Counted from the first letter of the stretch, positions 7,525-34,109 are shown. The stretch: DNA of 64,000 nt from Spirochaetota bacterium (GCA_024275515.1 JAJRYZ010000244.1:1140-65139); one strand, 5' to 3'. The notes: a model not told the origin generated them from the sequence alone. Numbers and translations: made by a program.

Positions 7525-7559
7525 GCGGTGCCGGACGGAGCCGTCGTATAGACCTTGCC

Positions 7560-13951: not shown

Positions 13952-14127
13952 AAGGTCCTCCACGCGACATCGAAGTCGTCCGCAGAGCCGCGGCCGGAAT
14001 ATGTTACCATGTGCCGAACTCCGGAAACAACGAGTCCGGACGAACTCCCGGGTGCGCGCGAGGCAACCTTGATGAGTATCGACACAGGTCGTATAGTCTG
14101 CTGTATCTGTATCGACGGAGCGAACCG

Positions 14128-16708: not shown

Positions 16709-19462
16709 GTGGCGAAAAAGCGAGAGGGAATCGAACACGCGAAGCGCGTGGTCGGCAACTCCCGCGCGACCCGCGAGGAGCTACGCGACGAGCTGAGAAA
16801 GCTCATCGACGCCTACGAACGGCGACTCGATCGTTCGCGACGGGAATCATCATCCGGACATGGGCAACCGCGAGCGATACGGAAAATCAAAGTCGCGAAC
16901 GGCGTCTACTGGGTCGAAATTCCCGAGGCCGACCTTCGGATCCTCTGCGGCTGTCCGGCCGACGTGGTGAAGCTGTTGATCAAGCGGGGACTTATTATCA
17001 ACGCCGAAAGAGGTGGGGTCACTTTCGAAACGGGTCCGAACGCGATTCTCCTCTCCGACGTCATGATCCAGAACGGCCAGATTGCAAACCTCGCCGAGTT
17101 TCCGGTGCTGCAGATGCTCTATCGGCAGGGGATGCTTCTGCCGAATCACCCCAACAATACCGGAGCGAAACCCATTCTTATCGGGCTCGAGGAGGTCCTC
17201 CGTGCGCAGAGCCGCTATATCTATCGGGGGAACTACGGCCTGATTTCGGAGAAGGAGATCGAAGGCGCGGGAGTGGACCGCCGGCGAGCGGCCGAAATGA
17301 TGCGGCTGAAGCGGCGGTTCGCCTTCGACTCGATCCGAACCACCGAAGAGCTTATCGACTTGCGGATCGTCGATCGCGACGTGGTTCCGTTGTTCGAGAA
17401 TGTGTTTCTTCATCGCTTTGGAGTAAACCGCTACGAAATCATATGGAAGGGACAACACGTCGAAATCGATCTGAATCTGACTCCACAGGAGGAATACGAG
17501 TCTTCCTACCGGCTGGGCGATCACCGAATCGACAAAGAGTACTTTTCGGTGGTCCATATCGGAGAAGGCGACGGGTGGGACGTGAACCGTCCCTGCATGG
17601 CGAGCCTGTTGACCTATCAAGATCGGTTCTATTTGATCGACGCCGGTCCGAAGGTCATGAACAGTCTCATGGCGCTCGGAATAAGCATCAACGAGATAGA
17701 CGGTATTTTTCACACTCACGCTCACGACGACCACTTCGCCGGTCTCGCGGCTCTGCTCCGATCCGATCATCGCCTCACGTACTACACCACGCCGCTCGTA
17801 CGGACTTCGGTCACGAAGAAACTGTCGGCCCTCATGTCGATCGACGAGTCGAGTTTCGACAAATACTTCGACGTGCGCGACCTGGCGGCTGAGAAGTGGA
17901 ACGATATCGACGGTCTGGAGGTGATGCCGGTCTATTCGCCTCACCCCGTGGAGACGAACATCTTTCGGTTCAGGGTCCGTTGGCGCGACGGCTATCGATC
18001 GTACGCCCATCTCGCCGATATCGCGAGTTGTTCGGTGTTGATGAATATGGTCACCGACGATCCCGAACGCAGCGGGCTCGACCATGAGTCGTTCGAACGT
18101 ACGCGGTCGTCGTACCTAATCCCTGCGGATCTGAAGAAGATAGACATCGGCGGCGGGTTGATCCACGGCGACGCCGAAGACTTCGAGAACGATCGTTCGG
18201 CAAAGATCCTGCTGGCCCACGTGGAGCGTCCACTCACCGAGGCGCAGCGTGAAATCGGATCAAACGCGTCGTTCGGCACACAGGACGTACTCATCCCGTC
18301 GGTTCGCGACACGATTGTCGACGAGGCGTTCGAGTACCTGCACTCCTACTATGCGCAAGCGCCCGCCCACGAACTGGCCGCGCTGACCAACTATCCAATT
18401 CAGGAGTTCAACGCGGGAACGATCATGATCCGCAAGGGGGATAAGTGCGATTCGGTCTATTTGGTCATTCGCGGAGTGGTGGAGGCGCTCGATGTAAAAT
18501 CCGGGCTGTCGGTGCGGATGACCGCCGGTTCGCTCGTCGGAGAAACTGCGGGCCTCGAAGGAGACATGAGCGCGATGACCTACCGCACGTCGAGCTACGT
18601 CAAAGCGCTTCGGATTCCCCTGCGCCATTTCGCCGATTTTATTCGCCGAAACGACTTGTACGAGTCGATGCTTAGCGTCCACGAACGGATCGAGTTTCTC
18701 CGATCAAACCGATTGTTCGACGAGGCGGTCTCGTACCAGACGCTCTACGCGATCGCTCAGACGATGGTGAAGGTCGACCTCGACGCGGGCGCCGTCATCG
18801 CCGAGGAGGTTGCCGGTTGCATCTTTCTCATTACCGCCTGGTCGGTGCGCTTGTACGCGGACGACCGCGAGTTCGAGTTGCTCGGCGAGGGTGACGTGTG
18901 CGGCGAGGCGTGCATGCTTATGGGCGATTCGAAGGTCATTTCGGCGGTGACCGCGTCCAAAACATCCGGGTTCACGATTCCGGCCGATTCAATCGAGAGC
19001 ATTCCGATTGTCCGATGGAAGCTGCTCGAGCTGTTCAATCGACGCATTCGGAAGCTGACCACGTTCGTCGGGCTGGTGTGGCACGACGAATACCGTCTCG
19101 ACAACGGCGTAATCGACGAACAGCATCGGGGGCTCTTCGAAACGGTGAAAAGCGTGTACGCGGAGGCCGAACGCGGCGCCGTTTCCGAAAAGATTCGACC
19201 GGTCCTAGATCTTTTGCGGGAGCGGATAAAGCACCATTTCATCACCGAGGAGGAAGCGCTCCAATCGATCGGCTATCCGGAGCTCGACTCGCACCGAGCG
19301 GCGCACGAGGAGGCGTTCGATCGCCTCGCGCGTTTTGTCGAGAGGATCGGGAATGAAAGCGATCGGGTCGAGGTTCAACAGCTCGCGTTCCTGAAGAACT
19401 GGTTGGTGCAGCATATGTTGATAGAAGACGCCGGATTCCGCGCGTTCGTTCAGCAGCAGTGA
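16709..19462 (+). CDS. multidomain signalling protein: unassigned N-terminal region, MBL-fold hydrolase core, two cNMP-binding modules, C-terminal hemerythrin
   Basis: MBL motif FHTHAHDDHFAGL. cNMP module 1 has GSLVGETAGL...YRTSS. Module 2 is degenerate. Hemerythrin ligand blocks IDEQH / HHFITEE / SHRAAH / QHMLIED are present. GTG 16709 is preceded by AGGGAG. The track ORF begins at TTG 16577. Confidence 0.8.
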   Translation: MAKKREGIEHAKRVVGNSRATREELRDELRKLIDAYERRLDRSRRESSSGHGQPRAIRKIKVANGVYWVEIPEADLRILCGCPADVVKLLIKRGLIINAERGGVTFETGPNAILLSDVMIQNGQIANLAEFPVLQMLYRQGMLLPNHPNNTGAKPILIGLEEVLRAQSRYIYRGNYGLISEKEIEGAGVDRRRAAEMMRLKRRFAFDSIRTTEELIDLRIVDRDVVPLFENVFLHRFGVNRYEIIWKGQHVEIDLNLTPQEEYESSYRLGDHRIDKEYFSVVHIGEGDGWDVNRPCMASLLTYQDRFYLIDAGPKVMNSLMALGISINEIDGIFHTHAHDDHFAGLAALLRSDHRLTYYTTPLVRTSVTKKLSALMSIDESSFDKYFDVRDLAAEKWNDIDGLEVMPVYSPHPVETNIFRFRVRWRDGYRSYAHLADIASCSVLMNMVTDDPERSGLDHESFERTRSSYLIPADLKKIDIGGGLIHGDAEDFENDRSAKILLAHVERPLTEAQREIGSNASFGTQDVLIPSVRDTIVDEAFEYLHSYYAQAPAHELAALTNYPIQEFNAGTIMIRKGDKCDSVYLVIRGVVEALDVKSGLSVRMTAGSLVGETAGLEGDMSAMTYRTSSYVKALRIPLRHFADFIRRNDLYESMLSVHERIEFLRSNRLFDEAVSYQTLYAIAQTMVKVDLDAGAVIAEEVAGCIFLITAWSVRLYADDREFELLGEGDVCGEACMLMGDSKVISAVTASKTSGFTIPADSIESIPIVRWKLLELFNRRIRKLTTFVGLVWHDEYRLDNGVIDEQHRGLFETVKSVYAEAERGAVSEKIRPVLDLLRERIKHHFITEEEALQSIGYPELDSHRAAHEEAFDRLARFVERIGNESDRVEVQQLAFLKNWLVQHMLIEDAGFRAFVQQQ

Positions 19463-19470
19463 GGAAAACA

Positions 19471-20646
19471 ATGGGAAGAAAGCTCCACATTACGGGCATC
19501 GAAGTTACCCAGTTCACGTGGGTACTTGAAGCGATCGCGAAGGACGATTACTACAACGGTTTCAACCTCGTCTACACACCCGGAGAACGGCAGGAAATGT
19601 CGGGCCATATCCTTCAGGTGCGGACGTCTGCCGGAATTACCGGCACGTTCATCGGCGGGTCGAAAGGCGACTATGCGCAAATGGAGATGTATGCCGAGTA
19701 TCTGGTCGGACGGAATCCACTCGAACGTGAGTTGATCCATAACGATCTGAAACGCGCGCTCAGAAAACTCGATCGGACGAGCGTCGGTCTCGTCGATATC
19801 GCTCTGTGGGACATCGCGGGAAGGCTCTACGACGCTCCGATTTGGGAACTCCTCGGCGGCTACCGTGAACGCATTCCGGCCTACGCTTCCACTTATCACG
19901 GCGATGAGAACGGAGGCCTCGGTTCGCCGGAGGAGTTTGCCGACTTCGCCGTTACCTGCCGCGACATGGGATACCGGGCGTTCAAGATTCACGGGTGGAG
20001 CCACGCGCCAATAGCCCGCGAAGTCCGAAACGTTCTCGCCGTCCGCGAGGCCGTCGGCAAAGAAATGGACTTGATGCTCGACCCGGCCTGCGAATACGAA
20101 ACCTTCGCCGACGCTCTGCGGGTCGGCCGGGCGTGCGACGAGGCTCGGTATTTCTGGTACGAGGATCCGTTCAAAGATTCGGGCCTGTCTCATTTCGCGC
20201 AGAAACGGCTGCGGGAAATGATCGACACGCCGATCCTAATGGGGGAGCATATCCGGAGTCTCGAGCCCAAAGTCGACATGATTGTGGCGGGAGCGACCGA
20301 CTACGTGCGGGTGAATCCCACCCTCGATATGGGGATAACCGGCGCGATGAAGGTGGCGCATGCCGCCGAGGGATTCGGTCTGGATGTGGAATTCCACGCT
20401 CCGGGACCGGCGCAGCGGCACTGTCTGGCTGCGGTCCGTAACGCCAATTACTACGAACTCGGACTGGTCCATCCGAAGGCGCCCGAGTCGGCGCCGCCGG
20501 TGTATACCGACTACTCCGACGCGCTTGACGCGATCGACGCCGACGGTTCGGTGCCCGTTCCCGACGGACCCGGTTTGGGTGTGGAAATAGATTGGGACTA
20601 CGTGAGAGCGCATCAGACCGGTAGTCGAATTCTCGCGGGACGATAG
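19471..20646 (+). CDS. enolase-superfamily enzyme (mandelate racemase/muconate lactonizing family, acid-sugar dehydratase-like)
   Basis: Capping domain plus barrel, with metal-ligand contexts MDLMLDPAC, FWYEDPF and MGEH. ATG 19471 follows GAGGA. Confidence 0.85.
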   Translation: MGRKLHITGIEVTQFTWVLEAIAKDDYYNGFNLVYTPGERQEMSGHILQVRTSAGITGTFIGGSKGDYAQMEMYAEYLVGRNPLERELIHNDLKRALRKLDRTSVGLVDIALWDIAGRLYDAPIWELLGGYRERIPAYASTYHGDENGGLGSPEEFADFAVTCRDMGYRAFKIHGWSHAPIAREVRNVLAVREAVGKEMDLMLDPACEYETFADALRVGRACDEARYFWYEDPFKDSGLSHFAQKRLREMIDTPILMGEHIRSLEPKVDMIVAGATDYVRVNPTLDMGITGAMKVAHAAEGFGLDVEFHAPGPAQRHCLAAVRNANYYELGLVHPKAPESAPPVYTDYSDALDAIDADGSVPVPDGPGLGVEIDWDYVRAHQTGSRILAGR

Positions 20647-20699: not shown

Positions 20700-22823
20700 T
20701 CACCTCACTCCGGCGGCCGAGGGGTCGATCGGAACGAAACCGATCTCGAAGGCCGGCGAGTCCGCAGCGAGCGTGAAGTCCCGTGCGTAGACGTCGGCGA
20801 ACTTGGGGTCGGCGAACACCGAGTGGCGGTCGTTGCCGACCGCTTGCCATCCGGCAAGATCCATCGTTGTCTCCGAATCGCGCTCGATGCATTTCACCGG
20901 GTTCCCCGACACGTCCCAGATGAGATTCAGATCGCTCGTGTGATTCGGCCTGTCGAGACTTCCCCGGTATCCGACCCGGAACAGCGCCTCGCCGTTGGAG
21001 ACGAGGATATTGCGTTCGAATCTGATCGAGCAATGCTCGTATTCGGCCCTTCCGTGCGAGAGCACCGCCGAATCGGCGAACGCGAAGATATTGTTCCGCA
21101 CGATGTTGTCCCTGCCGTAGTGCTGGTTGAATACCGCGTCGTTGGTGTCGTGGCACAGGTTGCCTTCGATCACCATGTGGCTCGATCCTTCATCCGGGTA
21201 GATGCACCACCCGCCGTAGTGCGCCTTGGTTATGTCGTGTATATGGTTTCCCCGGATCGTCGTCCCCGGCTGCACACCCAGCGTGTAAATGCCGCCCATG
21301 TCCGAAAGCAACCCCTGTCCGATTCGATGGATGTGGTTGTAGTCGATTCTGTTGTCCCGCGATACGCTCTCCATGTATCCCCACACCCATCCGGCCGAAA
21401 CGCCGGTATAGTAGTAGTCCCAGATATGGTTGTGCGAGATTTCGTTGTTGAACGCGTGCATAACGAGTATCCCGACCGCCGAATGAAACACGCGGCCGCC
21501 CGCGGAAATCTCGTTATCGGTAAACGCATGGTCGCCGGTCCTTCTGTGCACGGGGTCATAGGCCGACGCTCCGTTTGCCCTGATTCCGCCGGCGCCCGTT
21601 TGACGAATCGTGCACCGCGTAATCGCGATCGCACGCGACGCGTCGGCAATCTCGAATCCGTACCATCCGACGTTTTGCACCGTACATCCGGTGAAGCGGC
21701 AGTGTCGCGCGGCTTCCATGAACACCACCCCCGGAACGTCCGCCGCCGCCTGATTGCACGCGGCTCTGTTTCCTCTGCGGTTCCGTCGCGATTCGAACGC
21801 GGTCGGGTCTCCCGACGGGCCGACGAAGACTGCGCCGTCGGAGGCGTCGGGATGTCTCCAGTCGGTGTGCTGAAAGGTCAGGTTCTCGAATTGCAGGAAC
21901 TCGACGAACCGGTTCTCGTCCGGGCTACCCTGCAGTACGAGGAGTTGGAGCGCCCGCGGCGCCGTGATTTCGACCGCGCCGAGTTCTTCTCCCGGATGCG
22001 GAATGTAGTACACGGTTCCCGTATCGCGATCGAGATACCACTCTCCCGGCTCGGAAAACGCCTCGGAGACGTTGTCGAGATAGTAGTCGGCGAGACCCTC
22101 TCCGTGCGCCGCGAAGAGCGGCGCCGTGCTCGGCCGCGCCATAACGACTTCGCGGGTCTTCTCGTCGTAGGAGACGATTCCGGAGCGCTCCTCGATCCAG
22201 AAATGAACGTAAACGACCTCGATGTCTTCGAGATTGTCGAACGGCCGAAGATCGCCCGGCCGTGCGATGAACTTCGTGTAGTCTCTCCCCGTGTGCCAAC
22301 TCCCCCTGGAGGGAAGCCCCGGAACCGACTCCATGCGAAACAGCCCGTGCTTGGGGAACCTCGGCCGGGTTCGCCGCTCTCCGTTAACGAACAATTCTCG
22401 AAAACTCCAGCCCTTGTCGCGCGCGTCGGGGACATCGGCCGCCCAGCACTCTCTCCCCCGATAGCTCGCCGCGTGCCAGCCGGTGATTTCGATCGACCCG
22501 TCGATGACGGGTTTTTCTCCGGGGTAGGCGCGGTAGCGGACGGGCGCCGAGTCGCGGTCGTCGAAACGGATGGGCCCGGAAACGCGGTAGACCCCGCCGC
22601 GAATCCAGACGTTTATCGGTCCCCGAAGCGCCGCCGAAAGGCGCGACGCCTGCTTGCTGAAAACGAAGCTCTTCCTGCGACGTATCTCATCGCGCGCTCC
22701 CTCGATGGTCGCGAAGGGGCCGTCCGTGCCTTCCGCGTTCGGTTCGGGCAGCCTTCCCGACCATTCGTCGCCGCCGGCGGACGACACGAAAAGGTCTTCC
22801 GGCCCAAACTCTTCGTACTTCAT
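20700..22823 (-). CDS. right-handed parallel beta-helix repeat protein (putative glycan lyase/hydrolase), paralogue 1, no signal peptide
   Basis: Repetitive N-x-I/V-x-x-N turns are present, with conserved blocks YYTGVSAGWVWGY, LSDMGGIYTLGVQPGT, GGWCIYPDEGSS and NIVRNNIFAF shared with 24392-26452. The N-terminus is MKYEEFGPEDLF. Confidence 0.8.
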   Translation of the reverse strand: MKYEEFGPEDLFVSSAGGDEWSGRLPEPNAEGTDGPFATIEGARDEIRRRKSFVFSKQASRLSAALRGPINVWIRGGVYRVSGPIRFDDRDSAPVRYRAYPGEKPVIDGSIEITGWHAASYRGRECWAADVPDARDKGWSFRELFVNGERRTRPRFPKHGLFRMESVPGLPSRGSWHTGRDYTKFIARPGDLRPFDNLEDIEVVYVHFWIEERSGIVSYDEKTREVVMARPSTAPLFAAHGEGLADYYLDNVSEAFSEPGEWYLDRDTGTVYYIPHPGEELGAVEITAPRALQLLVLQGSPDENRFVEFLQFENLTFQHTDWRHPDASDGAVFVGPSGDPTAFESRRNRRGNRAACNQAAADVPGVVFMEAARHCRFTGCTVQNVGWYGFEIADASRAIAITRCTIRQTGAGGIRANGASAYDPVHRRTGDHAFTDNEISAGGRVFHSAVGILVMHAFNNEISHNHIWDYYYTGVSAGWVWGYMESVSRDNRIDYNHIHRIGQGLLSDMGGIYTLGVQPGTTIRGNHIHDITKAHYGGWCIYPDEGSSHMVIEGNLCHDTNDAVFNQHYGRDNIVRNNIFAFADSAVLSHGRAEYEHCSIRFERNILVSNGEALFRVGYRGSLDRPNHTSDLNLIWDVSGNPVKCIERDSETTMDLAGWQAVGNDRHSVFADPKFADVYARDFTLAADSPAFEIGFVPIDPSAAGVR

Positions 22824-22862
22824 ACGCGTGCTCCTCGATGGCGAAATGTGCGTCCGATCGTC

Positions 22863-24395
22863 CTACAGATAACTTTTGGTCCGTATTTCATCGAACCGAT
22901 CGGGGTTCACCTTAAGATCGTAGTTATACGTATTGTGATACCGCGTTATCCGTTGCGGCCCGACGGTCTCCGGTAGCCCGAGCACCGTCGCCGGGCGCGT
23001 CGTCGCGACGATTCTGTCGAGCAACCGTGCGCGAAGCTCGTTTACGAGTCCGTCGTTCCTTCCGTCGAGCGCGAGATTATTCATCTCCCACGGATCGGCC
23101 TCCAGGTCGTAGAGTTCGCAGAATCCGTCCGGGTAGTCGTCGGCGAACATCCGCTTCGGATAGAAGACGAAACGGTACTTATCCCAGCGAAGACTTCGGC
23201 TCCAGGCGAACTCGGTCAATCCGACGCGATCCGGATCGCCCGGATTGCCTTCGAGCATCGCCGAGATGTCGACGCCGTCGGAGGTCTCCATGAGAGGCAA
23301 TCCGGTAAGCGCGCATATCGTTTGGGAAAAATCGATGCTTTCGACGACCTCCCGGGCAACGTGTCCTTCCGCGAACCGACCCGGCCATCTCCAAATCGCC
23401 GGGACCCGGGTGATCGCGTCGGAACAGATTCCCGGCGCCTTTTCCATAATGCCGTGTTCGCACGCGTAGTCCCCGTGGTCGCTCGAATAGACGACGATCG
23501 TATTCTCCGCGAGGTCTTCCTCTTCGAGGAAGTCGAGAAGCTCGCCCACCGCGTGATCTACATGAGTGACGTTTCCGAGATACCCGTGCAGCTTTCGCAG
23601 TCGTCCGGCTTCGAAGGTCTTTGGTTCGAATAGCTGCCACTCGCTGCTCCGCCAGTGCTCCGCGGTCCGTTGCAGGTGCGGCGCCTTTCCCACCATGTCG
23701 TAATCCGAGTTGGGCGGAAGCGTCAGTTTCGACTCATCGTACAGGTCCCAGAACCGCTCGGCCGGCGTATAGCACTGGTGCGGTTTCGGAAGACTCACGT
23801 GCAGAAAGAAAGGACGGGACTCGCTCATCGCTTCGCGCATGAACCGCATCCCACGCCGGACGATCCATCCTTCCTGTCCGTCCTCGTAGGAAACCTTGCT
23901 GGGTCGTCCCTCGACGGTTTGACCTCCCCGTTTGCCGAACTCCTGCATCGCCCCGTGGTCCTCGAGGTCGGTGAGTCCGCGGTCGGCGAGATACTCGGCG
24001 TATTCCGCGCACCGTCCGCCTATGCTCGTTCCGCAGGTCTCCCGAAAAAGATCGACCGAGTCCTCGACCCAATACTCCGGACAGTGAATTTTTCCTATCG
24101 CTCCGGTCAGGTAACCGCCGCGGCCGAAATGATCGAAGATAGTCGGCAGTCCGCGAGGATTCGCCCCGCTTAGCCCGTAGTACCCGTGATTATGACAGTA
24201 CTGTCCCGAAAGCCAACTCATCCGGCTCGGCGTGCAAATCGGATTCTGCGTAATCGCGTTGTCGAATCTCACCCCCTCCGAGGCGAGTCGGTCGAGGTTC
24301 GGCGTCCGCACGTCGGGATGATTCTTGTGTCCGACGACTTTGGCGTTGTGCTGATCGGAGAGGATGTGCAGTACGTTGATTGCTCGTGAGCTCAT
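22863..24395 (-). CDS. Cys-type sulfatase (formylglycine-dependent), no signal peptide
   Basis: Signature CTPSRMSWLSGQY, preceded by NVLHILSDQH. ATG 24395 is preceded by AGGAGG. The track ORF's 59 extra codons are Arg-rich. ATGA overlap with the upstream gene's stop. Confidence 0.9.
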   Translation of the reverse strand: MSSRAINVLHILSDQHNAKVVGHKNHPDVRTPNLDRLASEGVRFDNAITQNPICTPSRMSWLSGQYCHNHGYYGLSGANPRGLPTIFDHFGRGGYLTGAIGKIHCPEYWVEDSVDLFRETCGTSIGGRCAEYAEYLADRGLTDLEDHGAMQEFGKRGGQTVEGRPSKVSYEDGQEGWIVRRGMRFMREAMSESRPFFLHVSLPKPHQCYTPAERFWDLYDESKLTLPPNSDYDMVGKAPHLQRTAEHWRSSEWQLFEPKTFEAGRLRKLHGYLGNVTHVDHAVGELLDFLEEEDLAENTIVVYSSDHGDYACEHGIMEKAPGICSDAITRVPAIWRWPGRFAEGHVAREVVESIDFSQTICALTGLPLMETSDGVDISAMLEGNPGDPDRVGLTEFAWSRSLRWDKYRFVFYPKRMFADDYPDGFCELYDLEADPWEMNNLALDGRNDGLVNELRARLLDRIVATTRPATVLGLPETVGPQRITRYHNTYNYDLKVNPDRFDEIRTKSYL

Positions 24396-26452
24396 AATAC
24401 CTCCTTTTTGCTTCCGGTCGGAACGCGCGGGCCGGCATTCGAAAGGTCGAACGGAACGAAACCGAGGGCTATTGCCGGGGAGTCGCCGGCAATCGTAAAA
24501 TCGCGGCCGGAAAGGTCGCGACATTTCGGGTCGGCGACAATGCTCCCGGCGTCCTGACCGCTCCTTTGCCACTCCTCGAAGCTCATTCCGTCGAACTCAA
24601 CCGACCCGCCCGACGTGTGAAAATAGCAATTGCGCAGAAACAGCGCAGTTTCGGGAGTCCACGGCTTCCCGCGAGCGCCCGCCTTAAGCAGCGCGCCCTC
24701 GGAATAAATCACGATGTTTTGTTCGAAGAGGAACGATCGATGACTTTCGGCCCGTCCGCGTTCTATCTGCGCCTCGACGCCGAAGGCGAAGATGTTGTTG
24801 CGAACGATGTTTTCCAGCCCGAAGTGCTGATGAAACGGCGCGCACTTGGTGTCGTAGCAACAGTTGTATTCGATCAGCAGCCGACTCGAGCCCTCGTCCG
24901 GATAGATCGCCCAGCCGCCGTAGGTCCGCGACCGAATGTCATGGATCAGGTTGTACCTGAGCCGGGTTCCCGGCTGCATGCCCAGCGTATAGATGCCGCC
25001 CATGTCGGAGAGCTTTCCCTTTCCGAGATGATGGATGTGATTCCATTCGACGACGTTCCCGCCGGCACGATTCTCCTCGTATCCCCAGTTCCAACCGATC
25101 GAAACTCCCGTGTAGTAGAAGTCGTGGATATCGTTGTGGAGGACGATATTCGACGGCGCGTCGCCGATAAGCACGCCGGCGGCCGGCGGAAAGAGATGTC
25201 CGCCGTCGCCGATATCGCAGTCGGATACGACGTTTCGCCCGCACCCGTGCCAGATCTTGATACCGCCGGCGCCGAGGTCGCGCAAAGTGCACCCGACTAT
25301 GCGAACGTCGGTGCAGTCGTCCTCCAACGCGATCGCGTAGGTTCCGACGTGCTCGACGGTGCATCCTTCGATCGAAACGTAATGCGCCTGCTTCATCGAG
25401 ACCGCCCCGGGAACGATCGGGGCCGACTGGCGGATCGCCGCAACGTCCTGCGGCGTTTGCCACTCGACGTGGCTAAACACGAGGTTTCTCAATGTGAGTA
25501 TCGGATGCGTGTTCAACTGCTTCGATTCGACGCCGCGTTCGAGCCGACCGCCGCGAATCTCAATGAGAGTCTCAAGATACGGCGCCACCACTTCGACCGC
25601 CCCGATCGTTTCTCCGGGCATCGGCACGTAGTAGAGCAGTCCGTCGGTCCTGTCCAGGTACCACTCGCCGGGCGAATCGAGCGCCTCGAAAACGTTCTCG
25701 ACGTTGTAGGCCGCTCCGGTTCGACCGAAATCGTAGGAAAGTCGCATACCGGAGTTCCGGTCGATGTAAACGATACGTTCGGCCGGATCGACCCGATCGA
25801 CCCGGGCCCGCATCGAACGCCACAGGGAAAGGATAACGATTTCAACATCCTTCAGGTTGCGCCACTTCGGGTCGATGTCGCCCATTGCGTATCCGAAGCG
25901 ATCGGTCCCTTTCCCGACCGTTTGCGACCAGGCGCCCTCCCACTCGGCGTCGTAGAGCGTCTCGATAAGGTATTCGCCCGACTTCGGAAGTATCGGGCGA
26001 AAGCGTCGCTCGCCGTTTACCCAGATTTGGGAAAAGCTCCATCCTCCCGATCGCACTCCGGGAACCTCGGCGACCCAAGCGTTCACGCCGTTGACCGTGG
26101 TCTCCCGAAACCCGTCGATTCTCCGTCCGCCGCTCAAGACCGCGCGTTCACGCGGATAGGATTCGTAGACGACCGGATGTACCGGCTCGACCGTCGTGTG
26201 CCAGTCGAACTTCTCGGGAGCGCCGAAGTCAGCCTCGGCCAGATGAAGGGTCCCGTCGAGAGAGTAGGTCCCTTCCCGAAGCACGATTCGGATCGTCTTG
26301 GGTTCGTTCGTTTTTCGTCGGATCGATCGAGCGACGCGCTGCGCCGCCTTGATCGTTCGAAGAGGTCCATCGCCGGCGGAGTTGTCGGCGGTTCGCCCGG
26401 TATTGCCGTCGTCGCCTCGTGGCGAGACGTAGATGATCGCTTCGTCGCTCAT
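24392..26452 (-). CDS. right-handed parallel beta-helix repeat protein, paralogue 2, no signal peptide
   Basis: N-terminal IYVSPRGDDGNTG...GPLRTIKAAQ motif, typical of beta-helix enzymes. Blocks YYTGVSIGWNWGY, LSDMGGIYTLGMQPGT, GGWAIYPDEGSS and NIVRNNIFAF are collinear with paralogue 1. Confidence 0.8.
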   Translation of the reverse strand: MSDEAIIYVSPRGDDGNTGRTADNSAGDGPLRTIKAAQRVARSIRRKTNEPKTIRIVLREGTYSLDGTLHLAEADFGAPEKFDWHTTVEPVHPVVYESYPRERAVLSGGRRIDGFRETTVNGVNAWVAEVPGVRSGGWSFSQIWVNGERRFRPILPKSGEYLIETLYDAEWEGAWSQTVGKGTDRFGYAMGDIDPKWRNLKDVEIVILSLWRSMRARVDRVDPAERIVYIDRNSGMRLSYDFGRTGAAYNVENVFEALDSPGEWYLDRTDGLLYYVPMPGETIGAVEVVAPYLETLIEIRGGRLERGVESKQLNTHPILTLRNLVFSHVEWQTPQDVAAIRQSAPIVPGAVSMKQAHYVSIEGCTVEHVGTYAIALEDDCTDVRIVGCTLRDLGAGGIKIWHGCGRNVVSDCDIGDGGHLFPPAAGVLIGDAPSNIVLHNDIHDFYYTGVSIGWNWGYEENRAGGNVVEWNHIHHLGKGKLSDMGGIYTLGMQPGTRLRYNLIHDIRSRTYGGWAIYPDEGSSRLLIEYNCCYDTKCAPFHQHFGLENIVRNNIFAFGVEAQIERGRAESHRSFLFEQNIVIYSEGALLKAGARGKPWTPETALFLRNCYFHTSGGSVEFDGMSFEEWQRSGQDAGSIVADPKCRDLSGRDFTIAGDSPAIALGFVPFDLSNAGPRVPTGSKKEVL

Positions 26453-26544: not shown

Positions 26545-28833
26545 CTATCGGTAGTACGACGGAGAAACGCCTCTCGCCCGCTTGAAGGCCCGACGAAACG
26601 CATGCGCGCTGTGGTACCCCACCGTGTGGGCGATCTCGTCGACGGTAAGTTTTCCCGATCTCAATAGCGTGGAGGCACGATCCATCCGAAGCTCTTCAAT
26701 ATAGGAGAAGAAATTGGTGCCGAACAGTTCGCGCCACAACTTCGACAGATAGACTTCCGAGAGCTTGAACTCGAGAGCGAGGTGCTTGAGGCTCATCCCG
26801 GGGTCCATATAGTGGGTTTGAACATAGTCGGCGATCGGTTTCTTGAATCGGTGGCTTCGTCCCCCGTTCCGCCCGATCGACTTGGCGATCTCGACGAAAC
26901 CGTTAAGCTGAGCATCGATCTCTTCTCGGAGAGACGCGTGCGATGCGCCGCCGGCGACTCGTCGCCGCTGTGGAGTTTGCACCAGCCGGTTGTGGATTTT
27001 CAGCCGCGTCCCTTCAATTTCCTTGGCGAGAGTCTTGAGCATACGCACCGTCAGACACCTGCCGGAGAAGTTCTCCCGCCGGATCGTCTCGATGAGGGGT
27101 AGTAGTTCATCGGCGCGGCCGGTGGTGGTAAACGCGATAATCCGCAGCTCGATCTCGGGGGGATAGTAATAGAGCTCGGACGGTTTCGCCGATCCGTTTC
27201 CTCCGGGAATCGCCGGAGCGGAGTCGAGCCGTCTGATTGCCGCATCGAGCGCGGGAGGAACGTCGAGAAGCGAGGTCACGATCGCGCCGACCGCCACCAT
27301 GCATCGAACATCCCGCAGCGCCGAAAGATGCGCGGTCACGTTGCGCATCCTCGTGTCGAACGCTTCCTCGGCGCTTTTCGTTCCGTTGTTCCGATCGAGA
27401 ACCAGCACGACGCCTATCCGGTTCAGGCTTACTTCATGGACCAGCGCGCGCTCTGCGAGCACGTCGGTCAGTTGCTTGCGAATCAGAGTGTTTTTGATGA
27501 TAAACTCTTTGAGAATTTCCGAGTCGACCTCGTCGTAGTATCCGTCGATGAGGACGCACGCCACTCCGTAGCAGCCGCCGCGAATATCGACTTCGAAGTG
27601 ATCGAGGAACGCGGTAATTTCCTCTTCCGACACGAAGTCTCCTCGAAAGAGCCTGTCGATGACGACCTGTTTGACGTACGGTCTCTGTTCCTCCAGCAGG
27701 ACCTTCAGGCTCGAATTGCGCTTGATCAGCTCGGAGACCGAGTCGGAGATGAACCCGAGGCTATTCTCGCGGTTGGATTCCGACAGCACAACGCCGTCCT
27801 TGAGGATTTCCGAAACACGGATGAGCGGTTTGGAGAACCGGTAGGCGGTAAACACCGCTATCGGAATGCCCACGACGACGATGAGCAGAGCCAACGCGAC
27901 GAAGATCGTTTCGATTCGTTTGGACTGGCGCAGGAAGAGCGCCTTCGGGACGGCGGAAACGTAGAGCCAGCCGTTGTATTCACTTCGGATGTAGGAGACC
28001 GCGTAGTCTTCGTCGTCGACGGTGCGGAATAGAATTCCGCTCGGCTCCTCCGGAATCTCGAACCGCGGAACCGAGCCGTCGTCCCGATAGGAGATATCGA
28101 CGAACGACCTGCCGTCCTCCATGTCGATGTAGGCGCATCCCTTGCCCGGGAGCAGCCGTTCGCGCATGAGCGTCTCGATTGCGTTTCTGTCTATGTAGGC
28201 CGCGAGGACGCCCCTCCCTTTGATGCGCGGCGTAAAGGGAAGCGAAGCGCGTATTTCGATGACGTCGTGAAGAGCGCCACGGTAGACGATCCGTTTGAAA
28301 CTCGCGGTGCGATGGACGTAACGCGTTCCGGCCAGATCGGCTTTCCACTTATCGTACGGAACACCGACCTCGCGCAGATAACTTTGATAGAAAAGCTCGG
28401 GGGAGAAAAATACGTCTCTCGTCGTGAGAATCGTGTCGATTTCGCGTAGGTAGACGACGATATCGATGAGATAAGGGTTCTCCGCGGCGGTCAACAAACT
28501 ATTCAAACGCGCGCGTCCAATCTCAAGCATCATCGGCGGAGTAACGGGTCCTTTCAGGAACAGCAGGTCGTTAAGTCCGTTTTCTGCGCGAATCGCGGTA
28601 ATCATCGTCGAAATATCGCGTATCGCCGACTCGACTACCGCCTTGTTCAGCGCGAGATTGTCGGTGTTCGTCGCGCGAATATCCGCTTCGATGTTCCGAA
28701 TCTGCAAGCCGTAGAACACGCCTCCGACGATGAGAGGAGTCAACAGAATGACCAGATAGGCCAGCAGGAATTTCCACAGAATAGCGAGGCGCTTGTCCGC
28801 TCCACGCGCGCCGCGTGTCCGGGGAACGATCAC
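26545..28833 (-). CDS. membrane-anchored AraC-family one-component regulator (TM, extracytoplasmic sensor, TM, HAMP-like linker, AraC HTH)
   Basis: Two TM segments (AILWKFLLAYLVILLTPLIVGGVFY; IFVALALLIVVVGIPIAVFTAY). C-terminal AraC HTH (SLKHLALEFKLSEVYLSKLWRELFG..., GYHSAHAFRRAFKRARGVSP). No H-box and no receiver domain. The start is uncertain: GTG 28833 is chosen, and the track gives TTG 28947, which would overlap the upstream permease by 62 nt. Confidence 0.75.
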   Translation of the reverse strand: MIVPRTRGARGADKRLAILWKFLLAYLVILLTPLIVGGVFYGLQIRNIEADIRATNTDNLALNKAVVESAIRDISTMITAIRAENGLNDLLFLKGPVTPPMMLEIGRARLNSLLTAAENPYLIDIVVYLREIDTILTTRDVFFSPELFYQSYLREVGVPYDKWKADLAGTRYVHRTASFKRIVYRGALHDVIEIRASLPFTPRIKGRGVLAAYIDRNAIETLMRERLLPGKGCAYIDMEDGRSFVDISYRDDGSVPRFEIPEEPSGILFRTVDDEDYAVSYIRSEYNGWLYVSAVPKALFLRQSKRIETIFVALALLIVVVGIPIAVFTAYRFSKPLIRVSEILKDGVVLSESNRENSLGFISDSVSELIKRNSSLKVLLEEQRPYVKQVVIDRLFRGDFVSEEEITAFLDHFEVDIRGGCYGVACVLIDGYYDEVDSEILKEFIIKNTLIRKQLTDVLAERALVHEVSLNRIGVVLVLDRNNGTKSAEEAFDTRMRNVTAHLSALRDVRCMVAVGAIVTSLLDVPPALDAAIRRLDSAPAIPGGNGSAKPSELYYYPPEIELRIIAFTTTGRADELLPLIETIRRENFSGRCLTVRMLKTLAKEIEGTRLKIHNRLVQTPQRRRVAGGASHASLREEIDAQLNGFVEIAKSIGRNGGRSHRFKKPIADYVQTHYMDPGMSLKHLALEFKLSEVYLSKLWRELFGTNFFSYIEELRMDRASTLLRSGKLTVDEIAHTVGYHSAHAFRRAFKRARGVSPSYYR

Positions 28834-28885
28834 GAGGACTACTCTATCACAGAAACGGTCGGGTGTGCGAGATAAAGCGCCCGTT

Positions 28886-29869
28886 CTACCAGAGACTCGT
28901 GTCTCCGAGCTTGCGCGCGATTCGGTTGACCAGCACGAGAAGGACAAAGCTGATTCCGTTCTGGAACAACCCGATTGCCGTAGCGTAGGAGTAGTTTGGG
29001 TAGGAAGCGACGATACCGATCTTGTAGACGTAGGTCGAGATTACTTCCGATGCGCGGATGTTGAGGTTGTTCTGCAGCAGAAAGATCTTTTCAAACCCGA
29101 TTTGAAGCATGCTTCCCGAACGTAGTATCAGCAGTATCACGATGATCGGGAGGATCGTCTGTATGTCGATATGCCACATCCGTCGCCAGATGCTCGCCCC
29201 GTCCACCAACGCGGAGTCGTGAAGCGAATCGTCGACCGCCGAAAGCGCGGCAAGATATATTATCGTTCCCCAGCCCATGTTCTGCCAAATGCCGGTCCAG
29301 ACGTACACATGGGGAAACCACGCGACACTTGCAAGGAAAGCGGGTTGTTTTTCAAAACCAATAGTCGACAGGACGGTGCTGATAATACCGTATCGAGGAG
29401 TAAACATTTTATAGATGATTCCGACCATGACGACTGTTGAAATAAAATGAGGTATATAAGTCGTCATCTGAACGGATTTTCTGTAGATCGGGAACGGGCA
29501 GTAGTGAATGAGGAGTGCGAGGATTATCGGGATAGGAAATCCCGCGAGAAGTGAATACACGTTCAAAACAAAAGTGTTTTTTAGAATCCACGCAAATTTG
29601 TACGAATTCAAGAAACGCGTAAAGTTGTCGAACCCTATCCATTCGCTTCCCCAGATTCCCAATCCCGGCAGGAGTCGTTTGAACGCTATGATGTTTCCGT
29701 ACATGGGGATGTACTGGAAAACGAGGATGAGCAGCACCGGCGCGACGCAGAGCAGATACATATCCCAGTTCGCCCGGATTCGCTTTCGCCTGATTCTGCG
29801 GAAATACTCCCGTTGCGCAACCCTTTCCGAAGAGCCGCCCCGGTCCACCGCTCGCTGTAACAAACTCAT
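28886..29869 (-). CDS. carbohydrate ABC transporter permease, LplB-type, without an adjacent LplC partner
   Basis: Collinear and highly similar at the protein level to 32722-33702 (shared FPIPIILALLIHYCPFP, VWTGIWQ.MGWGTIIYLAAL, FLLQNNLNI). No obvious Shine-Dalgarno precedes ATG 29869. Confidence 0.8.
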   Translation of the reverse strand: MSLLQRAVDRGGSSERVAQREYFRRIRRKRIRANWDMYLLCVAPVLLILVFQYIPMYGNIIAFKRLLPGLGIWGSEWIGFDNFTRFLNSYKFAWILKNTFVLNVYSLLAGFPIPIILALLIHYCPFPIYRKSVQMTTYIPHFISTVVMVGIIYKMFTPRYGIISTVLSTIGFEKQPAFLASVAWFPHVYVWTGIWQNMGWGTIIYLAALSAVDDSLHDSALVDGASIWRRMWHIDIQTILPIIVILLILRSGSMLQIGFEKIFLLQNNLNIRASEVISTYVYKIGIVASYPNYSYATAIGLFQNGISFVLLVLVNRIARKLGDTSLW

Positions 29870-29975: not shown

Positions 29976-31685
29976 CTAGTAGCCGGCGTTGGTGATCGTC
30001 TTCTGCCAGAGCTCGACGTACCGATCGACGCCGGCTCGCTTGAGCTCGCGCAGGTATGCGTCCCAGTCGCCGTCGTCGGTGATGTCGCGGGTTCCGACGA
30101 TGAACTCGGTCGACCAGTTCATGACAACACCGGTCCCTGAAGAAATAGCCTCTCTCAGGTCGGTCATTTCATCCATGATCGCTTCGTCGAAGACAAGGTT
30201 CGGCGGGATGTAGTGTTCGCCGCCGTACGGCTGCATCAAGTCGCGGGTCCAGATCATGAGCCAGTACTCCTGCTTCGACCGGTCGTTCTTCCACTCGAGC
30301 GGAAGACCGCCGATGTTGTACGGTGTCCACCTGGGCGCAGCTCTCGTCCATCCGTCGTCTCTCTTGTCCGCTCCGAGCCCATAGGTCTTTGTAACGATAG
30401 GAAGTGTCTCGGCAGGATGTCCGTCCCGGCTGACGAGCCCGAGCTTCTTCTCCTCTTCGGTCAGGTACCGCCAATCCACGCCTTCCTGGAGGAAGTCCCA
30501 CGAGAGAGGGCCATGGACGAACTTATCCTGGTAGAACCAGTTCGCCCACTGAGCGATGATGTCGGGCCTGTCGGCGGCGCTGGTAATCTTGGTGTGAAAT
30601 CGAACCGCCGGCGGATTGTAGCGCGCGAACTGCACGCCGTTGGGGCCTTTGAGCGGAGCGATGGGCCAATAGTCGGCAAACCGACCGGTGCCGCCGCCGT
30701 TGATGCTGAATACTCCGTACCAGCCGGCGGGCACCGCACCGACTTTCGGAGCGTCGGGATGTTCGACGAGCGCGCGAAGCTGGTCGTTGTGCTGGACGAA
30801 GGTTTCGGGAGCGAGAAGGCCTTCGTCGACGAGCTTGTTGAGGTACGTGAGGCCTTCGCGATACTCGGGCGTATTTGCGACGAAGCTGATTTTCCCGCCG
30901 TCACGTCTGAGGAAATTCCCGTTGTCGAAGTAGACGAACGAATTCATGAGAAAAATCATCGGGTTGGTGTTCCATCCGCCCTGAGCCGAACCCATCAACG
31001 GAATCTCGTCCTTCTGGCCGTTTCCGTTCGGGTCGCCGTCACGCATGGCTACGAATAGATCGTACAGCTCATCGGTCGTCTCCGGGGGCCATTTCTTTCC
31101 CAAAGTCTCGACCCACGGCTTGTAGATAAAGAACTTACCCGAGTAAGAACAGTGGAAACAACCGGCTTCGAGGTCGGGGAGGGCGTAGATGTTCCCGTCG
31201 GGGCTTGTGAGTTGGGCCAAGTATTGTGGATACGCGGCGAGCTCTTTTTTCAAATCCGGCATCTTTGTGTCGATGAGGTCATTGAGCGCGATAAGCGTGC
31301 CGTTCAGACCGTAGGTATAGGCCTGTTGAGCATCCATGCCCCACGCCGACATGATCACGTCGGGAAGATCGCCGGAAGCGAGCATCAAGTTCTGCCGTTC
31401 GGCGAACACGGACGATTCGATGACTTCCTTCCAGATAATGCGAACGTTGGTGATATCTTCGAGATACGACGTTAACTTCGCATCCTGGTGATTCCCCGAA
31501 GACTCGGTGGCGCTGTAGATGCCAACGGCCTCGAACTCGTACGGTTCGGGCCCGAGTATTACCGGCCAACTGCCCGGTGTATTCAACTCATACTCGTCTT
31601 TGGCAGCTCCTTCGCCCTGCCCTCCGCCGAATACCACACCGGCTGAGACGCCCAGGACGACCATGAAGAACAATAACTTCTTCAT
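29976..31685 (-). CDS. extracellular solute-binding protein, large LplA-type
   Basis: Signal peptide MKKLLFFMVVLGVSAGVVFGGG with no Cys. The protein is 569 aa and follows the two permease genes. Confidence 0.85.
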   Translation of the reverse strand: MKKLLFFMVVLGVSAGVVFGGGQGEGAAKDEYELNTPGSWPVILGPEPYEFEAVGIYSATESSGNHQDAKLTSYLEDITNVRIIWKEVIESSVFAERQNLMLASGDLPDVIMSAWGMDAQQAYTYGLNGTLIALNDLIDTKMPDLKKELAAYPQYLAQLTSPDGNIYALPDLEAGCFHCSYSGKFFIYKPWVETLGKKWPPETTDELYDLFVAMRDGDPNGNGQKDEIPLMGSAQGGWNTNPMIFLMNSFVYFDNGNFLRRDGGKISFVANTPEYREGLTYLNKLVDEGLLAPETFVQHNDQLRALVEHPDAPKVGAVPAGWYGVFSINGGGTGRFADYWPIAPLKGPNGVQFARYNPPAVRFHTKITSAADRPDIIAQWANWFYQDKFVHGPLSWDFLQEGVDWRYLTEEEKKLGLVSRDGHPAETLPIVTKTYGLGADKRDDGWTRAAPRWTPYNIGGLPLEWKNDRSKQEYWLMIWTRDLMQPYGGEHYIPPNLVFDEAIMDEMTDLREAISSGTGVVMNWSTEFIVGTRDITDDGDWDAYLRELKRAGVDRYVELWQKTITNAGY

Positions 31686-31756: not shown

Positions 31757-32728
31757 CTATCCTTTTATCGCGCCGATCATTATGCCGCGAACGAAATACC
31801 GCTGTACGAACGGATACATCGCGAGAACCGGCAGAGTCGCAACGATTATCAGCGCGTACTGTAGAAGTTGCTGGAGGTACTCGCGTTGCATCATAAGGTC
31901 GAGCTGTTCTTGCGTCATGCCCGCCATCATCTCGTCCATGAGAACCGGTGAGTTTTGAATGAGTATCTCCCTCAAGACCAGTTGCAGCGGCTGGAGTGAT
32001 TTGGTTCGCAAGTAGATTAACGCGTTGAAGAACTGGTTCCAGTGGCCGACGGCGTAGAACAGCGTGATTACCGCGATGATCGGGCCGGATAATGGAACGA
32101 CTATCATGAGGAACATTCGAGTATTCGATGCGCCGTCGACGCGCGCCGAATCGTAGAGTTCAAGAGGAATATTGGCTTGCAGAAACGTTCGTGTAATGAT
32201 TACGTTCCAGACACCGATGGCCCACGGGATAATCATGACCGCCCGCGTGTCTATGAGTCCGAGGCTTTTGATAAGCAGGTAAGTCGGTATGAGTCCGCCG
32301 TTGAAGAACATCGTAAAAGTGAAAAGGAACATGATGATGTTTCGACCGACGAAATCCCGCCGCGAAAGCGGATATGCGACCATCATCGTCATGACGACAT
32401 TGAGGATGGTACCGAAAAATGTGTAGAAAACGGTGTTGCCGTAACCAACCCAGACGGCGTCGTGCTGGAAGACGGCCTTATATCCCTCAAGAGACGGCTT
32501 TACCGGCCAGAGCCATACTCTCCCCATGACGAGTTGTTGAGCGTTGCTCAACGACGCGCTTAGAATGAAAATGAGCGGGTAGAGCACGAGCAAGAAGATT
32601 CCGGACAGCAGCACGATGTCCAATATGTAGAAAAGCCTGTCCTCTCCGGAGCTTCTGACGCCGCGTCCACTAATTCGTTGTGCCTTTCTTTGTTGTGCCT
32701 GCGCCCTTCTTTGTTCCGTCGTTACCAC
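31757..32728 (-). CDS. carbohydrate ABC transporter permease, LplC/MalG-type
   Basis: EAA loop YDSARVDGASNTRMFLMIVVP. The GTG start overlaps the upstream stop (GTGGTAA). Confidence 0.85.
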   Translation of the reverse strand: MVTTEQRRAQAQQRKAQRISGRGVRSSGEDRLFYILDIVLLSGIFLLVLYPLIFILSASLSNAQQLVMGRVWLWPVKPSLEGYKAVFQHDAVWVGYGNTVFYTFFGTILNVVMTMMVAYPLSRRDFVGRNIIMFLFTFTMFFNGGLIPTYLLIKSLGLIDTRAVMIIPWAIGVWNVIITRTFLQANIPLELYDSARVDGASNTRMFLMIVVPLSGPIIAVITLFYAVGHWNQFFNALIYLRTKSLQPLQLVLREILIQNSPVLMDEMMAGMTQEQLDLMMQREYLQQLLQYALIIVATLPVLAMYPFVQRYFVRGIMIGAIKG

Positions 32729-33702
32729 AGGCTCGTCTCCGTGAGTTTTCTCGCCAGTCGGTTTACCATGATGAGTAGAATGAAACTGATGATATTGTTG
32801 AACAACCCGATCGCGGCCGCGTAGGAGAAGTTGGGATTCGCCGCCGCCAACCCGACTTTGTACACGTAGGTTTGAATGACTTCGGATGTTTTGATGTTCA
32901 GGTTGTTCTGCATGAGAAAGACCTTTTCAAAGCCGACGAAGAGCATACGCCCGATTCTGAGGATGAGCAGGATGATGACCGTGGGCGCGATTCCGGGCAA
33001 ATCGATGTGCCGCATCCTCTGCCAGATGTTCGCTCCGTCAACTTTGGCCGATTCGTGGAGCTCGGGATCCACCCCCGCAAGCGCCGCGAGGTAGATGATT
33101 GTGCCCCATCCCATCGTCTGCCAGATGCCGGTCCAGACAAATACGTGCCGGAACATACTCGCGGCGCCGAGGAAGTCGACCTCCCGAAACCCCAAGGTTC
33201 TGAGCGCCGTATTCACGAGGCCGATTCGAGGGCCCAACAACTTGAAGATGATCCCGACCATGACCACCATCGAGATAAAGTGAGGCGCGTAGGTCACCAT
33301 CTGCACAACTCTCTTGTACCTCGGAAACGGGCAATAGTGGATCAACAGCGCAAGTATTATTGGTATGGGGAATGCGGCAACGACTCCGTAAACGTTAATG
33401 ATAAAGGTGTTCCAGAATATCTGAGCAAACTTGTACGACCGGAAGAAACGGGTAAAGTTGGTGAACCCGATCCAGGGACTTCCCAGAATACCTCTCGCAG
33501 GTATGAATCGCTTGAACGCGATAATATTCCCGTACATCGGGTAGTACATAAAGATCAGAAGCCACGCGATCGGCATGAGCACGAACAGATAGAGTTCCCA
33601 ATTGACCGAAATATCCCGCCATTTGAGTCTTTTTTTTCGTATTTTCTCGATCCGTACCGCTTCACCGGTAAGCGTCGAAGTTGTGTCGATGAGGTCTGCC
33701 AT
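32722..33702 (-). CDS. carbohydrate ABC transporter permease, LplB/MalF-type
   Basis: EAA loop HESAKVDGANIWQRMRHIDLP. ATG 33702 (MADLIDTT...) is preceded by GAGGA. The track start at 33780 adds 26 codons. Confidence 0.85.
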   Translation of the reverse strand: MADLIDTTSTLTGEAVRIEKIRKKRLKWRDISVNWELYLFVLMPIAWLLIFMYYPMYGNIIAFKRFIPARGILGSPWIGFTNFTRFFRSYKFAQIFWNTFIINVYGVVAAFPIPIILALLIHYCPFPRYKRVVQMVTYAPHFISMVVMVGIIFKLLGPRIGLVNTALRTLGFREVDFLGAASMFRHVFVWTGIWQTMGWGTIIYLAALAGVDPELHESAKVDGANIWQRMRHIDLPGIAPTVIILLILRIGRMLFVGFEKVFLMQNNLNIKTSEVIQTYVYKVGLAAANPNFSYAAAIGLFNNIISFILLIMVNRLARKLTETSLW

Positions 33703-34109
33703 CTTGTCCTCGCAAAGCTGCCTGGCGTGTTTGTACGTCGTTGATTGTAGCACCTTGTATTTCCGCCGTGAACCGGACAATAATTAGGAAAAGCGAACAA
33801 AAGTTGTCGGAACCTTCTCCTTTTTTTTTAAGGATCATCGTCGGATCGCGATTACCAGAAGGATGTGCAAAACCTTTAGGTCGTCTCACGCGAAACCCAC
33901 TTCGGGAAACCTGCCCGCGCCGTCGCATCACCGAGACAACACATCCCCGTGACAGGCTTCCGGGATGTCGACCCACAGCCGGTGACGTCCGCCGGTTCGA
34001 CTTTTGCCGCGTATTCGCCTCGGCGTCCTTTTGACCGCTCGACTTGTGCGGGAGTGCCCGTCGTGAAAGAATGTTCACTCAAGCAATAAACGCCAGTTGG
34101 AGGGATGCC

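Follow-up and report, generated by a model that had tools for sequence, protein, structure and literature searches.

Two leaderless GH141-like proteins and a Cys-type sulfatase behind an Lpl-type importer: a probable cytoplasmic route for a sulfated oligosaccharide in a spirochaete

What might a cell do with a sulfatase whose gene lies between two genes for right-handed beta-helix proteins, when all three products lack an export signal? The operon that raises this question occupies positions 20,700 to 26,452 of a 64,000-nucleotide stretch of Spirochaetota bacterium DNA (GCA_024275515.1 JAJRYZ010000244.1:1140-65139), referred to below as the window and numbered from its first letter. The outer genes are designated BH1 and BH2. 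An earlier note, made from the sequence alone, had proposed an importer-fed cytoplasmic pathway for a sulfated oligosaccharide. This is still the best reading of the locus. The operon stands behind an ATP-binding cassette (ABC) importer, its products carry no export signals, and the sulfatase is an intact Cys-type enzyme. We consider it probable that the locus is an ABC-importer system of the polysaccharide-utilisation type, in which a spirochaete processes a sulfated oligosaccharide in its cytoplasm.

The three genes are on the minus strand. BH1 (24392..26452, 686 aa) and BH2 (20700..22823, 707 aa) are predicted to encode cytoplasmic GH141-like beta-helix glycoside hydrolases, and the gene between them (22863..24395, 510 aa) a cytoplasmic, formylglycine-dependent S1 sulfatase of the Cys type. 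BH1 ends with ...gta tta TGA, a stop overlapped by the ATG of the sulfatase gene (ATGA, 24392-24395), which has an AGGAGG Shine-Dalgarno site on its 5' side. The 39-nt spacer between the sulfatase gene and BH2 (22824-22862) holds GAGGAG ahead of the BH2 ATG, and GGAG precedes the BH1 ATG. The overlap and the Shine-Dalgarno sites identify BH1-sulfatase-BH2 as a translationally coupled operon. A promoter consensus scan found a TATAAT-like element in the 92-nt gap 5' of BH1, and a terminator consensus scan of the locus gave no signal beyond chance. The co-directional tight packing, the overlap and the spacer had all been described in the earlier note and are present as described, and the three N-termini match those quoted there. 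Its description of BH1 and BH2 as full-length paralogues was confirmed as well: the proteins align end to end with 39% identity (E 3e-151), far above chance, and the blocks YYTGVS, LSDMGGIYTLG, IYPDEGSS and NIVRNNIFAF were found in both.

The earlier note could not place the beta-helix proteins in CAZy by eye. A placement is nevertheless available: Pfam, PDB sequence matches and the predicted fold all indicate that BH1 and BH2 are GH141-like. The Pfam domains Beta_helix (56.9 bits for BH1 and 70.9 bits for BH2) and GH141_M (35.9 and 40.4 bits, with a cut-off of 27 bits) were detected above their cut-offs in both proteins; NCBIfam has no model for either. In phmmer searches of the PDB sequences, BH1 matched 9RX2 (4.9e-36) and BT_1002 (5MQP, 5.6e-32), and BH2 matched 5MQP (1.9e-39) and 9RX2 (2.1e-36). 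These were the sole PDB sequence matches, and no other glycosidase family was matched. BT_1002 from Bacteroides thetaiotaomicron is the founding member of GH141 and an alpha-L-fucosidase of a rhamnogalacturonan-II (RG-II) locus. Structure prediction, which the earlier note had advised, gave a confident AlphaFold (AF2) model of BH1, built on 74 homologues, with a mean predicted local distance difference test (pLDDT) score of 95. The top Foldseek match of this model was again BT_1002 (E 1.6e-28, template modelling (TM) score 0.60-0.71), and the next family, represented by GH120 XylC (3.8e-15), was 13 orders of magnitude worse.

The shared blocks coincide with the catalytic residues of BT_1002. 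Asp523 and Asp564 of that enzyme are reported to be essential (PMC12786026), and they align with D483 and D519 of BH1 and with D508 and D544 of BH2. In BH1 the first Asp lies in LSDMGGIYTLG (24980..25012, minus strand) and the second in IYPDEGSS (24884..24907, minus strand); the corresponding blocks of BH2 are at 21276..21308 and 21180..21203 on the same strand. D483, D519 and E520 (BH1 numbering) are invariant across the 74 homologues. Because the catalytic Asp pair of BT_1002 falls on their Asp residues, the LSDMGG and YPDEGSS blocks are assigned, by alignment, as the GH141 active site. The resemblance to BT_1002 extends to the domain order of N-terminal cap, GH141_M insertion domain and catalytic beta-helix. 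The Asp pair is conserved, and the motifs around it resemble each other (YDVAG and YTDEGSS in BT_1002; SDMGG and YPDEGSS in BH1 and BH2). The overall identity is just 22-24%, and a region of ~100 additional residues is present at the C-terminus of BH1 and BH2. This region is common to 9RX2, a 717-aa protein of solved structure described as a 'parallel beta-helix repeat protein', which aligns over the full length of BH1 and BH2 and shares with them the DGPFATxxxA motif of the N-terminal cap as well as an end of the form DPxFxD...DFxxxxDSPAxxxGFxPID. 9RX2 differs from them in its ~26-residue leader and in having GDGNG and RTDGG around the catalytic Asp residues. A literature search for 9RX2 found no paper; a paper on an Akkermansiaceae GH141 enzyme was found, and it contains no structure.

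The central protein matched the Pfam sulfatase family (PF00884, 145 bits) and also has an SGSH_C domain. The CTPSR formylglycine motif had been read correctly: it comprises residues 54-58 (24222..24236, minus strand), with Cys54 first, and aligns with CaPaR of the choline sulfatase 6FNY. Together with CTPSR, the motifs SDQH, GKIH and SDHGD align with catalytic or metal-binding residues of 6FNY, and the protein is thus predicted to be an intact Cys-type S1 enzyme. Such an enzyme needs a maturase. The earlier note had seen none in the window, which is correct, but the genome does not lack one: a protein on another contig (C156:18563-19633) scored 388 bits against TIGR03942, above the curated cut-off of 349, and has the CxxxCxxC motif of radical S-adenosylmethionine (radical-SAM) enzymes, identifying it as an anaerobic sulfatase-maturating enzyme (anSME). 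Two further proteins in the genome have an FGE-sulfatase domain. A cytoplasmic radical-SAM maturase fits cytoplasmic sulfatases.

Export signals were assessed by a hydrophobicity heuristic rather than by SignalP. No N-terminal signal was found on any of the three proteins, and alternative upstream starts gave none. The ATG of BH1 is preceded by an in-frame stop at a distance of 5 codons and that of BH2 by one at 13 codons, so that neither protein can have a leader, whichever start codon is used. The sole upstream start of the sulfatase (GTG 24572) would add 59 arginine-rich, non-hydrophobic residues (best 12-residue Kyte-Doolittle mean -0.58), and this extension falls inside the BH1 coding sequence. 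At 14 of 15 inspected orthologue loci, the sulfatase open reading frame (ORF) starts directly at PN(I/V)LF(I/L)xSDQH. The alignments of BT_1002 and 9RX2 start at about residue 27, where BH1 and BH2 begin. With the same heuristic, a control beta-helix gene on another contig of the genome (C1) scored as a clear lipoprotein. The absence of leaders noted earlier is thus real, but it is not special to this operon: the ~40 sulfatases on ~40 contigs of the genome all lack both the space and the hydrophobicity that a signal peptide would require, and 108 of the 120 closest BH1 homologues (~90%) are without a hydrophobic N-terminus. These observations point to cytoplasmic desulfation as an organism-wide strategy in a diderm spirochaete that has one anSME and at least 35 Lpl-type importers.

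The upstream genes would supply the import function. As the earlier note had stated, an AraC sensor and an LplB/LplC/LplA-type importer are present upstream on the same strand. Nearest to BH1 is the gene for a membrane-anchored AraC-family regulator with HTH_18 and HTH_AraC domains at its C-terminus (26545..28947, minus strand; this is the longest ORF and the start is probably downstream of 28886). It is followed in the upstream direction by genes for an LplB-type permease (28886..29869), an LplA-like extracytoplasmic solute-binding protein of 569 aa (29976..31685), an LplC-type permease (31757..32728) and another LplB-type permease (32722..33780; longest ORF, the true start possibly being later), all on the minus strand. 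All three permeases matched Pfam BPD_transp_1. The locus therefore has one LplC-type and two LplB-type genes, and the second LplB-type gene, which is 65% identical to the first, is placed between the genes for the binding protein and the regulator. The binding protein has no Pfam match, and its N-terminus (MKKLLFFMVVLGVSAGVVFGGGQGEG) is a signal peptide without a lipobox Cys, as expected for a diderm. Paralogues of the binding protein adjoin other Lpl permease pairs in the genome, which has at least 35 such pairs, and on three other contigs paralogues of the membrane-anchored AraC regulator adjoin Lpl importers; sulfatase genes are present as well on two of these contigs (C249 and C88). The association of importer and sulfatase recurs in 10 Chloroflexota loci. 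In these an LplB-LplC-LplA set immediately precedes the sulfatase orthologue; its permeases share 46-57% identity with those of the window, and the LplC-type orthologues directly 5' of the sulfatase share 52-57%. This conserved link is independent support for an importer-fed cytoplasmic sulfatase and not for a unit of three enzymes.

Taken together, genes in one direction for a regulator, a binding protein, permeases and glycan-processing enzymes without leaders give the locus the composition of ABC-importer-based loci without SusC/D. In the pathway that we propose, the membrane-anchored AraC regulator would sense the substrate, and the periplasmic binding protein and the LplB/LplC permeases would, judging from the gene order, import the sulfated oligosaccharide. 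The products of BH1, the sulfatase gene and BH2, lacking export signals, would then process it in the cytoplasm. The sulfatase would remove sulfate esters after conversion of Cys54 to formylglycine by the cytoplasmic radical-SAM anSME of the genome, and the two GH141-like hydrolases would cleave two different glycosidic linkages, each by means of its conserved Asp pair. As the substrate, an oligosaccharide that is sulfated and possibly contains fucose is probable. The identity of the sugars is the weakest step; they are most likely of a deoxyhexose-containing, sulfated fucose type. Our best guess is a sulfated deoxyhexose-containing oligosaccharide, with fucose specifically having roughly one chance in three. 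GH141 comprises an RG-II fucosidase, a xylanase and endo-fucanases acting on sulfated fucans (PMC12786026), and its members are common in fucoidan loci beside sulfatases. The hint of fucose comes from this fucosidase and these endo-fucanases, from at least six GH29 fucosidase genes and a true L-fucose isomerase FucI (1073 bits) in the genome, and from a GH29 gene that adjoins a GH141-like paralogue on contig C138.

Several observations weigh against this reading. A GH141-like gene is nearby in only 3 of 80 sulfatase-orthologue loci (L084, L039 and L014), and the sulfatase was found in none of 18 BH2-orthologue loci. The contexts of BH1 orthologues, and likewise those of the 18 BH2 orthologues, are heterogeneous and often without a carbohydrate-active enzyme (CAZyme) as neighbour. 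The triad, treated in the earlier note as a module, is not a conserved one, and the functional coupling of the three enzymes consequently rests on this one operon. The binding proteins of the Chloroflexota loci are only 31-34% identical to that of the window, and the closest solved relatives of the sulfatase are choline sulfatases (1e-38). Characterised GH141 members act on non-sulfated glycans (RG-II and xylan) as well as on sulfated fucans (PMC12786026). At the catalytic Asp residues, BH1 and BH2 have SDMGG and YPDEG, not DG and RxD, and this local context is nearer to BT_1002; by eye, the GH141*6 endo-fucanase signatures HQxWxxxD, DG(x24)NxxxxN and RxD were not seen in BH1 or BH2. Finally, the sequence comes from a metagenome bin of 4.2 Mb that is 95% complete and has an estimated contamination of 6.5%, and the assignment of the contig to the spirochaete is accordingly not certain. 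In favour of a spirochaete as host, which is how we read it, the genome encodes three FlaA periplasmic-flagellum sheath proteins, as against none in 14 control genomes; in the same class, some genomes measure only 1.2-1.5 Mb.

One rival explanation is that the operon is a mosaic of three independently mobile cytoplasmic enzymes, assembled by chance or for co-regulation and acting on different substrates. Each gene has orthologues of 50-72% identity in many phyla, almost never together, and clustering of the neighbours in the 80 sulfatase and 18 BH2 loci gave the Lpl importer in Chloroflexota as the sole conserved partner. Among 30 other genomes of the class, just two contain GH141-like relatives, and the absence of such genes from the remaining 28 suggests that these genes were laterally acquired. 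The stop/start overlap and the 39-nt spacing, however, argue for selection on co-expression. A sulfatase orthologue does stand beside a GH141-like gene in two Planctomycetota loci; in one of these (L084) the gene directly downstream encodes a 48% identical relative of BH2. Other GH141-like paralogues of the genome also share contigs with sulfatase genes (C103 and C172). We regard a mosaic as rather unlikely, though the least unlikely of the rival explanations. The second Planctomycetota locus (L039; 1158-5114 of CAZVPF010000086.1, a Pirellulales metagenome-assembled genome) has a sulfatase orthologue with 61% identity and a leader resembling those of the twin-arginine translocation (Tat) pathway, followed by a GH141-like lipoprotein, so that here the pairing of sulfatase and GH141 occurs in exported form.

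The similarity to choline sulfatases raises a second alternative, in which the sulfatase would scavenge sulfur or osmolytes from choline-O-sulfate or aryl sulfates, small sulfate esters that are not carbohydrates, and would be unrelated to the flanking glycosidases. The best NCBIfam models are likewise those for arylsulfatase and choline-sulfatase. The scores are nevertheless far below the curated equivalog cut-offs (194.1 against 481 bits for arylsulfatase, PRK13759; 181.7 against 433 bits for the choline sulfatase BetC, TIGR03417), and for that reason the protein is not an equivalog of either. Many S1 subfamilies score alike against it (1e-33 to 1e-38), no solved relative stands out, and we assign it to no named subfamily. 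Its orthogroup is 57-72% identical over 80 loci (L008-L087) from at least 10 phyla, which would fit a simple, ubiquitous substrate; the sources include Spirochaetia, Armatimonadota, Poribacteria, Lentisphaerota, Chloroflexota, Planctomycetota, Kiritimatiellia, Verrucomicrobiota, Bacillota and others, and the closest orthologue comes from a Spirochaetales bin. This high identity across phyla, combined with very variable neighbourhoods, suggests frequent lateral transfer of the sulfatase as a single-gene function on a common substrate. Against a role in scavenging, no betA-, betB- or betI-type genes are nearby, the sulfatase is downstream of oligosaccharide-type Lpl importers both here and in Chloroflexota, and the genome has ~40 paralogous sulfatases and many glycosidases. 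We consider this alternative improbable.

A third possibility is non-classical export, with the enzymes working in the periplasm like the characterised GH141 enzymes and most polysaccharide sulfatases. The ~26 extra N-terminal residues of BT_1002 and 9RX2, the signal peptides of ~10% of the BH1 homologues, and the Tat-like and lipoprotein leaders of the Pirellulales pair are in its favour. It is very improbable in view of the stops upstream of BH1 and BH2, which exclude leaders, the cytoplasmic type of the maturase, and the leaderless state of all ~40 sulfatases in a genome whose binding proteins and one beta-helix protein have clear leaders. Equally hard to accept is the suggestion that the beta-helix proteins are not glycoside hydrolases at all and are lyases, epimerases or binding proteins sharing the fold only, for although this fold is common to PL6 lyases, phage depolymerases and adhesins, all ranking lower in the fold search (GH110, GH136 and lyases were all much weaker matches of the BH1 model than BT_1002, the lyases by at least 20 orders of magnitude), the sequence-level similarity is specific to GH141 and the catalytic Asp pair does not vary among the homologues.

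The earlier note had called the beta-helix enzymes duplicated. Paralogy stands; a recent tandem duplication was rejected, because each protein has orthologues far closer than its paralogue (39%). Homologues of BH1 at 64-70% identity were found, among more than 5000 matches altogether (the few with a source name are from Armatimonadota, Planctomycetota including Phycisphaerae, Kiritimatiellae and Omnitrophica), and the orthologues of BH2, in 18 metagenome loci, are 48-68% identical to it. Sequence comparison thus places BH1 and BH2 as old paralogues in two separate orthogroups, each represented in other phyla by proteins of 50-70% identity. Two more full-length relatives are encoded in the genome. 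The one on contig C138 (29-35% identity) adjoins a leaderless GH29 protein, an aldehyde dehydrogenase and a GH78-like rhamnosidase, and the one on contig C103 (45-48% to BH1) adjoins a heparinase II/III-like protein, oxidoreductases and a sulfatase.

In the contig C103 region (1-14000), a leaderless heparinase II/III-like protein of 762 aa is encoded directly beside the GH141-like paralogue closest to BH1, followed by an aldo-keto reductase, a TIM-barrel isomerase-like protein, a Zn-dependent alcohol dehydrogenase, a protein of the uroporphyrinogen-decarboxylase (URO-D) fold and a sulfatase. This region is probably a second cytoplasmic sulfated-glycan cluster, for a glycan that probably contains uronate.

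Comparison with known systems shows which parts of the locus have precedents. BT_1002 is exported and acts on non-sulfated pectin from a SusC/D-type locus, whereas BH1 and BH2 are leaderless and belong to an ABC-importer locus with a sulfatase. Wf141_1, Wf141_2 and Wf141_4 of Wenyingzhuangia fucanilytica are endo-1,4-alpha-L-fucanases in the branch GH141*6 defined by conserved unique peptide patterns (CUPP) (PMC12786026). They share the CAZy family of BH1 and BH2, their substrates are sulfated fucans and their genes have sulfatase genes as neighbours, so that GH141 and sulfatase is a known pairing; unlike the enzymes proposed here, they are secreted and act on the polymer, and their published signatures (HQxWxxxD, DG...N....N and RxD), on which the comparison was made, are not in BH1 or BH2. 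A precedent for desulfation after import is found in the intracellular sulfatase clusters of Bifidobacterium breve UCC2003, each with transporter, sulfatase and anSME, according to the account of Egan et al. 2016 given in PMC7326374. As far as that account goes, a sulfated sugar is imported there and then desulfated in the cytoplasm by an anSME-matured Cys-type sulfatase, as we propose here; the sugar is the monosaccharide N-acetylglucosamine-6-sulfate (GlcNAc-6-S), the maturase gene is in the cluster, GH141 is absent and the host is Gram-positive. The SusC/D-free loci of the Gram-positive type, with LplABC importers and AraC/YesMN regulation, resemble the present locus in having a regulator, a binding protein, two permeases, no ATPase gene and cytoplasmic glycosidases. 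The present locus differs in its diderm spirochaete host, its unlipidated binding protein, its one-component membrane AraC regulator and its second LplB-type permease.

As a system, the locus is a further example and not a new principle. What is new is the occurrence in a spirochaete of uncharacterised, mostly leaderless branches of known families. To our knowledge, GH141 has only a handful of characterised members, all of which are exported. Tentatively, and with more doubt than confidence, BH1 and BH2 may represent two orthogroups of a large (more than 5000 matches), many-phyla and mostly leaderless GH141 subclade with a new exo-type specificity on imported sulfated or fucosylated oligosaccharides, accompanied by a sulfatase orthogroup (57-72% identity, at least 10 phyla) acting on one common sulfated sugar, in a host that desulfates everything in the cytoplasm (~40 sulfatases, one anSME and at least 35 importers). 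If so, the specificity would be unlike that of the exported GH141 fucosidase, xylanase and endo-fucanases, and the strategy would differ from the periplasmic one of Bacteroidota and of bacteria of the Planctomycetota-Verrucomicrobiota-Chlamydiota (PVC) group. The role of GH141 in the breakdown of sulfated fucans, which is relevant to marine carbon storage, is only lately being defined. Two leaderless GH141-like enzymes and a widely conserved leaderless sulfatase in one operon are compact targets for the cytoplasmic branch of the family, and the locus offers a case for whether some diderms take up sulfated oligosaccharides whole and remove the sulfate intracellularly.

Two other groups of genes in the window were noted. 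An enolase-superfamily gene (19459-20646, plus strand) converges on BH2. Its closest solved relatives are the Agrobacterium 'isomerase/lactonizing enzymes' 4HCD and 1RVK (E 3e-54), and it overlaps by 4 nt the stop of a 961-aa gene with metallo-beta-lactamase (MBL), cyclic nucleotide monophosphate (cNMP) and hemerythrin domains, an odd operon partner for a sugar-acid enzyme. Because of its convergent orientation and this overlap with the preceding gene, it was rejected as a member of the locus. URO-D-like genes are present at 1448-2512 and 35964-36989. This family is massively expanded in the genome (~30 contigs by tblastn), and several members are near sulfatases or glycosidases, for instance the one on contig C103 that neighbours the heparinase-like gene and the GH141-like gene. 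In five loci of other phyla (L077, L044, L040, L038 and L051), weaker relatives were found 1-3 kb from sulfatase orthologues.

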